Positions 1,369 through 44,000 of a stretch of DNA of 47,310 bases are shown piece after piece. The first letter of the stretch is position 1. Each line of letters opens with the position of its first letter. The position numbers were made by a program, and so were the translations under genes. This DNA is from a virus (Duplodnaviria > Heunggongvirae > Uroviricota > Caudoviricetes): IMG/VR virus record IMGVR_UViG_2529292906_000014, positions 1-47,310 of that record; one strand, 5' to 3'. Under the pieces are notes generated by a model that searched no databases, had not been told where the DNA came from, and saw only the letters and a program-made list of their open reading frames with translations.

Positions 1369-1444
1369 GCCGATATAGCTCAGTTGGTAGAGCAGCGCAT
1401 TCGTAATGCGAAGGTCGTAGGTTCGACTCCTATTATCGGCACCA
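1369..1444 (+). tRNA. thrW: tRNA-Thr (anticodon CGU)
   Basis: 76-nt sequence GCCGATATAGCTCAGTTGGTAGAGCAGCGCATTCGTAATGCG...TTCGACTCCTATTATCGGCACCA with cloverleaf features, CGT anticodon loop and CCA end; known P22-type attachment site. Confidence 0.95.
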
Positions 1445-1458
1445 TTTAAATCAATAAG

Positions 1459-2622
1459 TTACACATCATTAGTACCTTCCTTATTTTTTGACTGGGACGA
1501 ATTTGGGACCGATGGGTTCAGGATCGAGTCTATTTGCCGTGCGTGTTCGGTAAGGTGATTAGGTGCAAGGTGAGCATATCGACGAACCATTTCGATAGAC
1601 TCCCAGCCTCCCATTTCCTGTAACACTGACAACGGGACTCCGGCTTGAACCAGCCAACTTGCCCAGGTGTGTCTCAAGTCGTGAAATCTGAAATCATCAA
1701 TACCAGCCCGTCTCAGCGCCGCTTTCCAGGCTGTGTTTGCGTCATACCGCATCTTCCTTACTGTTGGCGCTTTCGTTCCGTCTGGTTTGGTACAGCTTTC
1801 CTTGTACACAAATACCCAACGGTGATGATTCCCGATTTGTTTTTTCAAAACGCGACATGCAGTATCATTCAGCGCAACGCCAATTGCGCGGTTTGATTTA
1901 CTCTCTTCCGGGTTTATCCATGCCACCCGGCGCTGCATGTCTATTTGTTGCCATTCAAGGTTGATGATGTTCGAGCGTCTTAAGCCTGTTGCCAGTGCAA
2001 ATTCAACAACAGACTTTAATGGCTCCGGACATTCATCAATCAGCCTTTGTGCTTCATGGGGCTCCAGCCAGCGGATCCGTTTATTCTTTGGTTGAGGCAC
2101 TTTAATAATTGGTGCCTTATCCAGCATTTTCCATTCACGCTCTGCGGCTCTTAGTAGGGCCTTTATAAATGAAAGATGCGTAGCCTTCGTTGCAACGGAC
2201 GCTGGTTTTGGCGTGTATTCTGGAACAGGTTTCCCTTTTTTTCTGCATGCTTCTGCCCTGAGTCTCCAGTTTTCCTCATGACGCCGGTTCGTCATTTTCT
2301 GCATTGCTGAATAAATTTTTGATTCAGTAATGTCTCTTAGTTGCATTCCTGCGAAATGTTGAAGCCAGAATCCGATCCGGCTTTTGTCATCGTCCAGTGA
2401 TTTTTTATGTGCTTTCTCTTCAAGCCACCTGACACACGCTTCCTCGAACGTTATATCAGGTATTTCACCAAGTTTGCTGACCCGCCATGCTTCAGCCTTT
2501 AGCTTGTCATGGAGTTCTGTCGCCTGCCTTTTGTCCTTTGTTCCAAGAGACTGTTTAAATCTTTTACCGTTCGGCAATGTGAAACTGGCGTACCATATTT
2601 CACCTCTGCGGAAGAGTGACAT
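1459..2622 (-). CDS. int: tyrosine site-specific integrase, P22 Int-like
   Basis: 387-aa ORF starting [25 protein letters not shown]-terminal [10 protein letters not shown] and RRYAHL catalytic motifs; adjacent to thrW. Confidence 0.95.
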
Positions 2623-5060: not shown

Positions 5061-5423
5061 TTAATGACCTGCTGCGCGGAGTTTTCCGTCAGGTTCACCG
5101 GCAAGAGTCAGTAATTGTCCCTGGTCTTCCTGCAGAATAGTCAGGCGACCACCGCGATTGACATACATCGGTGTTTCGGTGGTGTCTTCTTCGGAAATTT
5201 TCCCGCGGTTAGTCGGGCGAACATATGAGAGTTTGTGTTTGATTTTCACACGGTTCTCATCAAATGGTTCGATTTCCAGGTTGAGCGAGACCTTACCTTT
5301 GGTTTTCGTGTTCATCACACCGGAAGCGACTTCACTGAGAACTGCGCCGATTTTGGTTTCAAATACGCCGCCGTCCAGCTCCCCGATAAATGCCTGCACA
5401 TCAGTACTGCGTTCGCTAGCCAT
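5061..5423 (-). CDS. hypothetical protein, YfdP-like (120 aa)
   Basis: Internal start MASERSTDVQAF preceded by GAGGAG; the upstream extension of the 182-aa ORF looks non-coding. Confidence 0.6.
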   Translation of the reverse strand: MASERSTDVQAFIGELDGGVFETKIGAVLSEVASGVMNTKTKGKVSLNLEIEPFDENRVKIKHKLSYVRPTNRGKISEEDTTETPMYVNRGGRLTILQEDQGQLLTLAGEPDGKLRAAGH

Positions 5424-6035
5424 TTTGCTGCTCCTCATCATATCGACCCTGCAAGGTCGGTTAGTTTCTCCACAAAACAGAGAAGAACACCTGCGGTGGC
5501 AGCCGCCCGGATGGATTGGGTTATGAGCCCGTCGTCCGGTGATGCTCTTCTCTGTTTTGTAAAAAGAGCGGTACCAGCCGGAAGCAAGTGTACAAACTGG
5601 TACCGCCAAAGCAGTGGCTGTTGTGGTGACCGGTGCTGATCTCCGGCTTGCGGTTATTTCAGACTCTCACGGGCGTTTAATTGCCCCGCCGAACAGCTCT
5701 TTTCCGCAATAGCTGCAATGTCTTTCGCGCATCAGTCTGCGCATTCACCACAACGCTGAGAGCACTTAGCCAGTTACGGCACCACACTTTGTCGCGGTTC
5801 CATAAATGCCCTCATCGTTGCACCCTGGTCTCTTCCCAGGCGTCAAACCGAATCGCCACGCTGGTTAGGCGTCTTATCAGCATCATCATTGACTTGCACA
5901 TTCCGGCTACCTGGTTTGTTTGCTCGAGCAAGGAGTGGATTGTCCCCTTTAACGTCACCAGACCGCTAACGACGCATGTGCCATACGCCGTGTTACAACC
6001 AAATTTTGTTTTAATCTTGCCTGTGTTATGTTTCT

Positions 6036-6075
6036 TTTAGATACATTATGTATCTCATGGGTACATTGTCAAGTA
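6036..6075 (-). promoter_or_regulatory. candidate pL promoter with OL operator (palindrome GATACAT-T-ATGTATC)
   Basis: On minus strand TTGACA, 16-bp spacer, CATAAT; perfect 7-bp inverted repeat overlaps the -10; sits just past the cI terminator. Confidence 0.4.
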
Positions 6076-6099
6076 TAAAAAAACCTGCCGAAGCAGGTT
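6075..6099 (-). terminator. intrinsic terminator downstream of cI
   Basis: Hairpin AACCTGC-cgaa-GCAGGTT followed on minus strand by a run of 7 T. Confidence 0.7.
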
Positions 6100-6111
6100 C
6101 ATAAATATTGA

Positions 6112-6786
6112 TTAGGCCTTTATTGTGTATCTTCTTGGTTTTCCCGAGAAAATCACTGTACCAATTATAGAGCAATTACCGTTAATCTTAATGTAAGGCT
6201 CAGGCCAGTTTGGGTTTAATGCTTTGAGATAACGCTGTGTTCCATCTTCTATCAATCGCTTGAAGGTGGTTTCGCCTGTATCGTGCATCAATGCAATAAC
6301 GTCGTCACCGTGGCAGGCAGGGACTTCGGGATCAACAAAAATCATGTCTCCAGGGCGGTACTCATCAATCATTGAATCACCAATCACCCGCAAGATATAA
6401 GTCATTTCGCCACAGGGTACAGGGCAGGGATACGTTTCTGCTGTGCTCAAATCAACCTCAGAATAGCCAACTTCTTTCCATGCTCCGGCCTGTACCCATG
6501 ATATGACAGGGACTAACGTTATTTGTTTGTTAGTGATTGAAACATCAGGTTTTTTTGTGATGTTCGTTGTCTGGTGTTCTTGATCAAGCCATCCGACAGG
6601 CAGGTCGAAACATTTTTCGATGTGCCGTGCCATGCTGTCACCGATATTTTTAGTAGCGCCATCCCCCATAAACCTGCTGGTTTGGGTTGGCTCGCGATCA
6701 ATCATGGTGGCAAAGGATGAATTTCCGCCAACACCATCTCTCAGTTTTCTGGCGTTAGACCGCCGGATGTCATGGATTGTTTTCAT
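6112..6786 (-). CDS. cI: CI-type prophage repressor (HTH plus S24 LexA-like peptidase domain)
   Basis: 224 aa; C-terminal S24 domain (LRVIGDSMIDEY..., ...SIIGTVIFSGKP); divergent from cro; no SD upstream, consistent with a leaderless transcript. Confidence 0.9.
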   Translation of the reverse strand: MKTIHDIRRSNARKLRDGVGGNSSFATMIDREPTQTSRFMGDGATKNIGDSMARHIEKCFDLPVGWLDQEHQTTNITKKPDVSITNKQITLVPVISWVQAGAWKEVGYSEVDLSTAETYPCPVPCGEMTYILRVIGDSMIDEYRPGDMIFVDPEVPACHGDDVIALMHDTGETTFKRLIEDGTQRYLKALNPNWPEPYIKINGNCSIIGTVIFSGKPRRYTIKA

Positions 6787-15892: not shown

Positions 15893-16783
15893 TCAGGCTG
15901 CCAGATCATCGTTTCCGATGGAAGCATAATAAGCTTTTTCTGCTTCTGCCGGAGGAGTATGGCCCAGCCTTCCCAGCAATCGTCGATTGTTATACCAGTC
16001 CACCCACGTTAGTGTGGCCAGTTCCACTTCTGCACGGTTTTTCCAGCTCTTACGGTGTATTACCTCCGCTTTGTAAAGACCATTGATGCTCTCAGCCATC
16101 GCGTTGTCATACGAGTCGCCTGTACTCCCTGTTGATGCCAGTAATCCGGCTTCTTTTAGTCGCTCCGTATAGGCCAGTGACACATACTGAGAGCCTTTAT
16201 CGCTGTGATGGATGGTGCCAGACGGACGACGGGCCCACAACGCCTGCTCCAGCGCATCCAGCACGAATGTCGTTTCCATAGACGATGAGACCCGCCACCC
16301 CACGATGTATCCGGCAAACACATCAATGATAAACGCCACATAGACGAAGCCCTGCCATGTGCTGACGTAAGTAAAATCAGCCACCCACAGCTGGTCAGGA
16401 CGTTCTGCCACGAACTGACGGTTTACGCGGTCACCTGTGGCAACGGTTTTCCGGCTGACGGTAGTGCGGACCTTTTTACCCCGGAGAACACCGGCAAGTC
16501 CCATAACCGCCATGAGGCGCGCCACTGTACATCTGGCCACCCTGATTCCTTCCCGTAACAACTGACGCCAGACTTTACGCACACCGTACACCTGATGATT
16601 TTCATCGTATACGCGCTGTATCTCTCTCTTCAGCCAGTCGTCGTGCTGCGCACGGGCACTGCGTTTATCCGGATGATGTCGCTGTTGCTGACAATGGTAA
16701 TACGTTGACGGGGCAATATGCAGTTCGCTGCATACCGGTCCGACCCCGTACTGCTCACGCAGCTTATCCAGCAGTGGCATCAT
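15893..16783 (-). CDS. IS3-family transposase OrfB (DDE integrase domain)
   Basis: 296 aa with DDE-type catalytic region (WVADFTYV...[10 protein letters not shown]...HSDKGSQY...DNAMAES); overlaps orfA at a run of A's. Confidence 0.85.
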
Positions 16784-17106
16784 TTTTTCCAGAGGCGGTC
16801 GAACTCCGCCTTCGCAAAATAAGCGGAAGCCTGGCGAAGGATATCGTTACTGCGGCGCAGTTCACGATTTTCACGTTCCAGCTCTTTCAGACGCTGACGT
16901 TCAGCGGTGGTGAGCCCACCATCACCGCCCCCGGTATCCCGCTCATGCTGGCGAACCCAGACACGCAGAGTCTCCGGCGTACAGCCAATCTTTGGGGCAA
17001 TGGAACAAATTGCCGCCCACTGTGAGTCATATTCATCCTGACTTTCCAGAACCATACGAATCGCCCGCTGACGGACTTCGGGGGAAAAACGAGTATTTTT
17101 AGTCAT
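16780..17106 (-). CDS. IS3-family transposase OrfA (HTH)
   Basis: 108 aa [22 protein letters not shown]... with leucine-zipper-like C-terminus; I recognise this as IS629-type OrfA. Confidence 0.85.
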
Positions 17107-43416: not shown

Positions 43417-44000
43417 TGGCATTCAGAATGAGTGAACAACCACGGACCATAACAATTTATAATCTGCTGGCCGGAACTAATGAATTTATTGGTGAAGGTG
43501 ACGCATATATTCCGCCTCATACAGGTCTGCCAGCAAACAGTACCGATATTGCACCGCCAGATATTCCGGCTGGCTTTGTGGCTGTTTTCAACAGTGATGA
43601 GGCATCGTGGCATCTCGTTGAAGACCATCGGGGTAAAACGGTCTATGACGTGGCTTCCGGCGACGCGTTATTTATTTCTGAACTCGGCTCATTACCGGAA
43701 AATGTCACCTGGTTATCCCCGGAAGGGGAGTTTCAGAAGTGGAACGGTACAGTCTGGGTGAAGGATACGGAAGCAGAAAAACTGTTCCGGATCCGGGAGG
43801 CGGAAGAAACAAAAAACAGCCTGATGCAGGTAGCCAGTGAGCATATAGCGCCGCTTCAGGATGCTGTAGATCTGGAGATTGCAACGGAAGAAGAGGCGTC
43901 GTTGCTGGAAGCCTGGAAGAAGTATCGGGTGTTGCTGAACCGTGTTGATACATCAACTGCACCTGATATTGAGTGGCCTGCTGTCCCTGTTATGGAGTAA
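43416..44000 (+). CDS. tfa: tail fiber assembly protein Tfa
   Basis: 194 aa; start overlaps the stf stop; lambda Tfa-like. Confidence 0.9.

Follow-up and report, generated by a model that had tools for sequence, protein, structure and literature searches.

What takes the place of the N gene in a lambdoid prophage which has none? The question is raised by the 47,310-nt stretch of IMG/VR record IMGVR_UViG_2529292906_000014 (positions 1 to 47,310; here called the window), a lambdoid prophage of the SfV / e14 / ST64B type. Its transcript from the promoter pL to the first early-left gene, yfdP, starts with a leader of 615 nt, which occupies the place of lambda N. A preliminary description of positions 5424-6111 had remarked on the missing N gene and on two inverted repeats, and had considered an antitermination element (nut- or put-like), a structured regulatory RNA or small RNA (sRNA), or extra repressor sites. 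Here, we show that the distal half of the leader folds on the pL-sense strand into an STnc100-like domain, a hairpin with a U tract (SL1), a large branched stem-loop (SL2), a small hairpin and a free Shine-Dalgarno sequence. SL2 is a new, widespread RNA motif set in a known kind of prophage leader. Thus, the structured RNA is the part of the earlier interpretation that stands, while its boxA, nut, put and operator parts do not. Coordinates refer to the window and, unless marked (+), to features on the minus strand.

Both repeats are present where they had been reported. The large one has perfect 15-nt arms (5472-5486 and 5546-5560) and grows to 25-nt arms (5472-5496 and 5536-5560) which are 84% complementary. 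When the 688-nt interval was simulated 300 times with a first-order Markov model, the longest perfect arms measured 8 nt on average and 12 nt at most, and a length of 15 was never reached (0/300). The GGTACC repeat has perfect 10-nt arms (5568-5577 and 5597-5606). An arm of this length alone is not unusual, as 24 of the 300 simulations attain it, yet the hairpin is kept in relatives. On the minus strand, the RNA from 5640 to 5424 folds with z = -6.6 and that from 5775 to 5424 with z = -4.7; the pL-proximal half (6038-5770) has the same level of structure as its shuffles (z = -0.25). The folding and covariance analysis across relatives, which had been proposed as a check, identifies the repeats as helices of a conserved, strand-specific RNA with compensatory base changes. 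The original observation is thereby borne out as a whole: the repeats exist, the large one is above chance, the hairpins are retained among homologous prophages, and no open reading frame (ORF) of the interval is conserved.

The large repeat corresponds to SL2 (5467-5565). It consists of a 22-bp basal stem, P2, whose first pairs take up the U tract of SL1, and of a three-way junction with the arms P3 and P4. P3 (CCGGA / UCCGG; 5539-5535 with 5511-5507) leads through a small internal loop to GGG-CUCAUAA-CCC, and P4 (5506-5493) is a variable hairpin. RNAalifold, applied to 30 non-identical sequences, finds 35 pairs, 9 of them with compensatory double changes. In this set, 98.1% of the SL2 cells are paired versus 42-56% with slid partners, and the covariation score of 0.202 (0.111 in shuffles) was attained by none of 500 shuffles. 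An independent set from IMG/VR (82 hits, 59 distinct sequences) has 98.6% of cells paired and 14 compensatory pairs, in an alignment which was fitted to the SL2 model and hence leans towards that structure. P2 comprises 22 near-perfect pairs (98.9% of cells paired) and has the length of double-stranded RNA, about two turns or at least 20 bp, that RNase III requires. The SL2 covariance model scores 145.9 bits on the minus strand of the window versus 33 bits on the plus strand. This gap and the frequent G-U pairs show that the helices are read single-stranded, on the transcribed strand. In the divergent members L077, L117, L121, L048 and L069, the sequences of P2 and P3 are entirely different and the architecture is kept. 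Pattern searches and the covariance model detected no second, putR-like copy in the window. Rfam 15 holds no model for SL2, and the window is empty over the element at the gathering threshold and at E<=10; for the element in relatives, Rfam yields nothing but STnc100 and DicF hits below threshold. The element was also not found in the literature on lambdoid tRNA-like leaders, yfdP, ymfH, the P1 ban operon or the motif sequence.

The most constrained part of SL2 is its apex, ACGGGCUCAUAACCCAAUC (5514-5532), which occurs once in the window and in which three G-C pairs close the 7-nt loop CUCAUAA (5527-5521). The apical arm CGaCGGGCUCAUAACCC (CGACGGGCUCAUAACCC) agrees with the anticodon stem-loop of the E. 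coli initiator tRNA-fMet, CGUCGGGCUCAUAACCC, at 16 out of 17 positions, 14 of which are contiguous; the tRNA sequence was verified against all 5426 E. coli genomes and metY. GGG:CCC never varies in the 30 + 59 sequences, whereas the other helices covary. All members except the defective e14 share the consensus (G/A)(C/U)GA-CGGG-CUCAU(A/U)(A/C)-CCC-AAUCC for the apical arm, and the copies of phage P1 retain GGG-nUCAUAn-CCC-AAUC. The apex is no tRNA gene, as only the anticodon arm is copied. ARAGORN calls a single tRNA in the window, a tRNA-Thr at 1369-1444, and the Rfam tRNA model has no hit in 5300-6200 at E<=10. An attP-type origin of the match was discarded, since the 3' half of the tRNA lies outside the identity, which spans the 5' side and the loop, and since the helices show the covariation of an RNA. 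We also rejected homology of SL2 with the metY-rimP hairpin, because the SL2 model matches just the metY anticodon arm. Pairing of the loop with a start codon (CUCAU:AUGAG) was inspected by eye and is not consistently conserved.

SL2 is flanked by two smaller hairpins. On its 5' side lies SL1 (5561-5607), a terminator-like hairpin with arms at 5607-5597 and 5577-5568, built on GGUACC and followed by UCUUUUU (5567-5561). With a stem of 10-13 pairs, it is a GC-rich hairpin directly before a U tract, as is characteristic of intrinsic terminators; a simple terminator scan missed it because the loop exceeds 8 nt. Of 30 relatives, 29 have a hairpin with U5-7 at this position, whose stems are of at least five unrelated sequences; divergent IMG/VR members have it, too. 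SL1 closes the STnc100-like domain, and its 5' arm UUUGGCGGUAyCAGUUU and its end CCGCCCUUUUU align with DicF of the Qin prophage. On the other side, between SL2 and the ribosome-binding site, lies SL3 (CGACCU-UGCA-GGGUCG; 5444-5459). Nearly all relatives have a hairpin here, with at least five stems (CGACC/GGUCG, GGCGG/CCGCC, GGCUG/CAGCC, GCGCC/GGCGC and CCUU/GAGG). The segment 5421-5436 then holds the Shine-Dalgarno sequence GAGGAG (5436-5431), unpaired in the fold, and the ATG of yfdP (5423-5421).

These assignments also settle the nature of the boxA-like string CGCTCTTTTTA. It is present at 5570-5560, as had been noticed, but it is not a boxA: CGCUCUUUUUA is composed of the U tract and the three nucleotides before it, with which the 3' arm of SL1 ends. 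At this position the relatives read GCCCUUUUU, GACCUUUUU and GCACUUUUUU, and further ones CCGCCCUUUUU, CGACCUUUUU, GGCACCUUUUUU and CCGCACUUUUUU; thus, the GCUCUU core is not conserved, and most relatives have another sequence in its place. A second boxA/boxB candidate, the block TGCTCT...GTTGTGGTGAATGC (GUGCUCUCAGCGUUGUGGUGAAUGC plus hairpin, 5763-5727), was dismissed as well, as the complete P1 units identify it as the 3' strand of an SL2-type stem together with an SL3-type hairpin.

Upstream of SL1, the STnc100-like domain (5620-5754) is delimited by a closing helix of GUUGUGGUGA (5754-5745) with UCACCACAAC (5629-5620) and contains hairpins at 5742-5727 and 5646-5630. The closing helix was found both as an inverted repeat and by fold prediction, and it covaries: the pairing partners are GUUGCGGUG:CACCGCAAC in P1, GUGAUGCGGUG:CACCGCAUCAC in Qin and GUUGUGA:UCACAAC in L023. 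Scored against Rfam STnc100, whose gathering score is 47, this architecture reaches 37.5 bits in 118970_sal3 and 38.8 bits in Qin. Just upstream of the domain, the leaders of several relatives (118970_sal3, i.e., L011, at about 1840-1930, and L007, L008, L015 and L038) as well as P1 (L045, 1583-1666) carry tRNA-like remnants with the T-arm-like hairpins GGUUCGAUUCC or GUCCGUUCAAUUCGGAC. ARAGORN called no tRNA in these remnants of the relatives and P1.

The pL-proximal block of the leader (5830-6004) is not notably structured. It is common to the trnI-ban spacer of phage P1, where its counterpart begins right after the 3' end of tRNA-Ile2, and its plasmid matches have 82-87% identity. The alignment of window and P1 contains conserved stretches but a frameshift, and hence the block has no shared ORF. 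Within it, about 60 nt, UUUGGUUGUAACACGGCGU.UGGCACAUGCGUCGUUAGCGGUCUGGUGACGUU (5946-6004; 3090-3150 in L045), are near-identical with P1, where they start after tRNA-Ile2; owing to the frameshift of window and P1 relative to each other, these are not coding, either. At 5840-5824 we observe the hairpin CCUGG-GAAGAGA-CCAGG, which has a GAAGA-containing loop as in lambda nutL boxB and no adjoining boxA. The P1 version, GCCGG-GAAGAGU-CCGGC, is a compensatory change.

How widespread is the element? Some part of 5400-6120 is matched in 3085 of the 5426 complete E. coli genomes, and among matches sampled across the ranking, roughly half of the partial ones cover the SL1-SL3 end. The element occurs in SfV, SfII, SfIV, cdtI, Ayreon, 2H10, mEp460, Stx2c and Stx2a phages, in ST64B, 118970_sal3, phiNP, Kp4866-6 and other phages, and in prophages of Citrobacter, Enterobacter, Kosakonia, Mixta, Atlantibacter, Leclercia, Erwinia and Klebsiella. 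There is one copy per phage record, per IMG/VR contig and in the window; P1 has two. The same module precedes differing first genes, namely yfdP, xisE, an HD-phosphatase gene and an RdgC-like gene, with about 25 to 150 nt from SL2 to the next start codon. So far, the N-less SfV, SfII, SfIV, ST64B, cdtI, mEp460 and Stx2c phages and e14 have been described just as being without N. Our results show that the N position is filled by a modular RNA leader akin to the DicF and STnc100/PasD loci, plus a strongly conserved element which is not in Rfam. This opens the questions of how early-left expression is gated without N and of what a phage gains from copying the anticodon arm of the initiator tRNA.

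Two distant loci place the leader in a larger context. In P1 (L045, AF234172), two diverged SL2 copies at 1799-1942 (+) and 2086-2164 (+) lie in the C1-controlled leader of the ban operon, downstream of an annotated dicF-like region, tRNA-Asn and tRNA-Thr and upstream of tciA, in a region with three tRNA genes. On the strand opposite to these copies, and overlapping them, the hypothetical genes plp and upl are annotated, which may therefore be spurious. The window segments 5830-6004 and 5619-5755 recur in the same P1 region, beside tRNA-Ile2 and tRNA-Thr. In the dicB operon of Qin (L169), the order is a degenerate SL2-like stem, a domain common to the Ayreon leader, DicF (76.7 bits), the STnc100-like domain (38.8 bits) and dicB. 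The degenerate stem (1790-1875), upstream of dicF, keeps UUCAUAG at its apex and has lost GGG:CCC. The STnc100-like domain of Qin, or A:B domain, has a 15-bp closing helix, UUUUGUGAUGCGGUG / CACCGCAUCACAAAA, which directly abuts the DicF terminator. These early leaders are thus mosaics, put together from a common set of RNA modules. In e14 of E. coli K-12 (L003), the element (2496-2640) immediately precedes xisE and goes under the annotation of a protein, YmfH; of the tRNA-like loop, a decayed version, UUAAUAA, is left.

Could the interval nevertheless encode a protein? It had been claimed that it holds no N-like gene, and this is in good agreement with our data. Mechanical ORFs of 25-49 aa exist on the minus strand of the leader and none is conserved; SL2 is not spanned by any frame that stays open in every one of the 30 relatives; and the SL2 length variants (100-127 nt) differ by amounts that are not multiples of three. 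The ORFs annotated on the element, which are ymfH in e14, PHROGs 33599 and 3651 and a number of phage genes for hypothetical proteins, are thus most likely artefacts, and plp and upl of P1 are probably mis-annotations of the element, too. A 25-aa ATG ORF reading MRRLMRERH... (MRRLMRERHCSYCGKELFGGAIKRP, 5744-5667) was examined as an N-like peptide. It starts inside the hairpin 5742-5727, and in L035 stem changes (GCGC to GCCC plus the matching arm) keep the hairpin but alter and truncate the peptide; this 25-codon ORF (5667-5744) is regarded as fortuitous. A 48-aa ORF at 5958-5812 was rejected on account of the frameshift between window and P1. No N-like or Arg-rich protein of the left or right operon emerged from PHROG scans in which 19 ORFs of the window and one of SfV were used to cover the two operons and the ORFs of the leader. 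A conserved small N-like protein in the interval or a displaced N gene, for which a search had been suggested, was therefore not found. The same scans assign CII-like, O-like and Q-like proteins to the right operon. The absence of N, cII and cIII homologues has been published for SfII, SfV and SfIV (PMC3851460).

What, then, does the leader do? We favour, with somewhat less than even confidence, a dicB-operon-type RNA leader, in which the SL1 terminator would attenuate and the SL2 duplex would serve as RNase III processing site. As an intrinsic terminator, SL1 would release a leader sRNA, let a fraction of the pL transcripts pass and so attenuate the early-left genes. In the read-through RNA, RNase III would cut the long duplex of SL2, i.e., P2 including the U tract, and thereby trim the 3' end of the sRNA, as reported for DicF. 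The cut would leave SL3 to protect the newly formed 5' end of the early-left mRNA and would set free an apical RNA of roughly 70 nt. The invariant tRNA-fMet-like arm would be the surface by which a factor that reads the anticodon arm of the initiator recognises the RNA. An operon-level role after transcription initiation is favoured by the fact that the module heads the operon irrespective of the first gene and occurs once per phage. Further points in support are the Qin leader, with SL2-like stem, DicF and A:B domain, and the P1 ban leader, with two SL2 copies and a dicF-like region.

The closest known system is the DicF/dicB leader of Qin (Rfam RF00039), which likewise heads a repressor-controlled early-left operon of a lambdoid prophage. 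DicF reportedly arises from termination and from processing by RNase III and RNase E (Faubladier, Cam and Bouche, J Mol Biol 1990). It ends in a GC hairpin and U tract with read-through; the window has the position, the hairpin and the U tract, and read-through is predicted. Besides the alignable SL1 5' arm and U-tract end, Qin shares a degenerate SL2-like stem and the A:B domain beside dicF. In contrast, SL2 with its tRNA-like arm is intact in the window, the SL1 stem is longer (11-13 bp, built on GGUACC) and its loop sequence differs, and hence DicF targets such as ftsZ cannot be assumed for SL1. The DicF model (gathering score 48 bits) has no hit in the window at E<=10; SL1 of phiNP scores 20.5 bits, DicF of Qin 76.7 bits. 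STnc100/PasD (Rfam RF02076) resembles the upstream domain in its long-range helix xUGGUGAAU ... CACCAx around hairpins, including CCGGnAGnCAnCCGG, and in the terminator that follows. A recent preprint presents STnc100 and PasD as related prophage-encoded sRNAs (bioRxiv 10.64898/2026.05.13.724894), and no SL2-like downstream element is described for either in the text consulted. The STnc100 model (gathering score 47) has no hit in the window at E<=10, and none of 19 other relatives reaches the gathering score. Two further leaders are similar in layout. In the lambda pL leader, with nutL and an RNase III site upstream of N, a long hairpin also stands between a non-coding 5' part and the first cistron, but the phage of the window has neither N nor nut. 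The metY-rimP-nusA leader of E. coli contains, ahead of the mRNA, a gene for tRNA-fMet, then a long hairpin and a terminator, and RNase III is said to cleave between metY and the downstream mRNA (Regnier and Grunberg-Manago, 1989). There is no homology, however, and the order of hairpin and terminator is reversed relative to the window.

Several points weigh against the dicB-type explanation. That SL1 terminates and that RNase III cuts SL2 are both deduced from sequence. With its 15-45 nt, the loop of SL1 is larger than is usual in efficient terminators, and the two SL2 copies of P1 are not preceded by U-tract hairpins. The long duplex is not universal, as the basal stem has just 6 bp in the divergent L048 and L069. 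Kinship with the known sRNAs is distant, given that neither DicF nor STnc100 gives a reportable score in the window and that the 19 relatives have no hit at the gathering score. Processing by RNase III leaves the invariance of the apex unexplained, and within the apical loop positions 37-38 vary (AA, UA, UC), with a U37 that is not tRNA-like.

The invariant apex points to a second explanation, which we consider possible, if rather unlikely: SL2 might mainly be a trans-acting mimic of the initiator-tRNA anticodon arm, an early pL product, possibly excised, that binds or decoys a factor of tRNA-fMet. Three G-C pairs are the hallmark of initiator tRNAs which is read by the P site and IF3, and VapC of Shigella and Salmonella reportedly cleaves tRNA-fMet in the anticodon loop (Winther and Gerdes, 2011). 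Candidate partners are MetRS, the 30S P site together with IF3, or a PIN toxin that cleaves tRNA-fMet, such as the enteric VapC; the mimic and the processing model are compatible with each other. A precedent for a leader hairpin that copies a tRNA anticodon stem-loop is the thrS operator, a tRNA-Thr anticodon-arm mimic which adjoins the ribosome-binding site, is bound by ThrRS and serves autoregulation. The mimic in the window differs from it in that it copies the initiator tRNA, lies 90-110 nt from the start codon and precedes unrelated genes. For a mimic speak the 16/17 identity, the fact that GGG:CCC and UCAU never change in 89 sequences or in the diverged copies of P1, in contrast to the covariation of all other helices, the location of the element among tRNA genes and tRNA-like remnants in the early leaders of P1 and relatives, and the two tandem copies in P1. 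The variable distance to the start codon also suits a role in trans better than a precise geometry in cis. On the other hand, by our estimate a 14-nt match to some tRNA arises by chance in about 1% of leaders of such size, positions 37/38 are not tRNA-like in several members, and the e14 copy has lost CAU, though this prophage is defective. A simple decoy would moreover need neither the long stem nor the conserved flanks (AAUCCA, CAUCACC). A more elaborate version, which we regard as doubtful, takes SL2 as a Y-scaffolded mimic, with three G-C pairs and a CAU loop as its invariant features, that might dock at the 30S P site/IF3 to load or park ribosomes on the long early transcript, which is untranslated, or might decoy or inhibit tRNA-fMet-targeting toxins such as VapC during induction. 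RNA mimicry of either sort, if true, would constitute a new class; the element itself occurs in P1 and in much of the complete E. coli genomes.

The early suggestion of a put-like element leads to a third explanation. HK022 put is an RNA of about 70 nt with two stems and a conserved G35/G36 junction, which occurs in both early operons, before the terminators that it suppresses (PMC9378689). By analogy, SL2, alone or with SL1, could be a cis-acting antiterminator that binds RNA polymerase and takes it past terminators within the long early-left operon, in place of N; we judge this improbable. The likeness is real in some respects: putL/putR, too, are non-coding RNAs with adjacent stem-loops in the early leader of an N-less lambdoid phage (PMC9378689), the phage of the window lacks N (PHROG scans; PMC3851460), the element heads its operon whatever the first gene, and a weak terminator-like site lies in the gap between yfdQ and yfdR. 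Yet SL2 measures about 100 nt plus flanks, roughly twice the size of put, is present in a single copy per phage with none downstream of pR, and lies after the leader terminator rather than before it. It has no obvious resemblance to putL by eye, and the SL2 model has no hit in the HK022 immunity region at E<=10. P1 carries two copies in one leader, and we know of no put-like antitermination in P1. Put of HK022 is Nus-independent, and mEp460, which has the same leader, presumably belongs to the mEp collection, as its name implies. The collection of that name is described as Nus-dependent (PMC11893012). If mEp460 is indeed Nus-dependent, these phages have, despite the lack of N, some step that relies on Nus factors.

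A nut site, i.e., boxA plus boxB hairpin, for an unrecognised N-like protein encoded elsewhere in the phage is very improbable. CGCUCUUUUUA resembles a boxA, the GAAGA-loop hairpin at 5840-5824 resembles lambda nutL boxB and has its compensatory change in P1, and a displaced N has a precedent in the N-like protein in the right operon of mEp021 (PMC11893012). But the boxA-like string is part of SL1 and not conserved, the second TGCTCT block belongs to an SL2-type stem as its 3' strand, the boxB-like hairpin is without adjoining boxA and common to P1, and neither operon encodes an Arg-rich or N-like protein according to PHROG. We give hardly any credence to the last explanation, by which the repeats act as DNA, in the form of a cruciform or of additional operators for the repressor, or a small protein is encoded here: GTACC does recur in the OR/OL palindromes, as had been pointed out for OR, and ORFs are annotated (ymfH in e14; hypotheticals in Ayreon, Eeyore and mEp460; PHROGs 33599 and 3651), but the same GGTACC hairpin stands beside unrelated repressors, e.g., in mEp460, other relatives keep the pairing with a wholly different hairpin sequence, G-U pairs and the strand asymmetry of the model score favour a single-stranded reading, no frame is conserved, and the indels are not multiples of three.

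The surroundings of the leader are those of a lambdoid immunity region. A gene for a LexA-family (S24) repressor, annotated ymfK (6112-6786), is followed by its terminator (6100-6081), and pL sits just downstream. The promoter that had been placed at about 6040-6072 is near consensus (6072-6045): a consensus scan finds 11 out of 12 matches in the -35 TTGACA (6072-6067) and the -10 CATAAT (6050-6045), separated by a 16-nt spacer, with a predicted start at about 6038. Operator-like palindromes at 6048-6066 and 6028-6046 overlap pL, and a cro-like gene lies on the other side. In mEp460, which has a different immunity region, the leader is 99% identical and the homology to the window leader ends at about 6010. 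The leader module thus starts just downstream of the transcription start. The first early-left gene, yfdP (5061-5423; named after the RefSeq E. coli annotation, PHROG 204), is followed leftward by yfdQ and yfdR.

A few observations concern other parts of these genomes. In the right operons of SfV (L001, 4911-5099) and mEp460 (L046, 6599-6787), IsrK and C4 antisense RNA score above the gathering score. The gene around these matches bears the annotation 'immunity region' or Rha antirepressor and represents a module like immI of P1; the right operon of the window has no IsrK/C4 antisense RNA match. Rfam matches to the ALIL pseudoknot, a frameshift element of the IS3 family (16709-16825), and to the IS009 RNA (43759-43957 (+)) indicate insertion-sequence or island material within or beside the prophage. 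The tRNA-Thr (CGU) gene at 1369-1444 (+), close to the left window end, probably serves the prophage as its bacterial attachment site.

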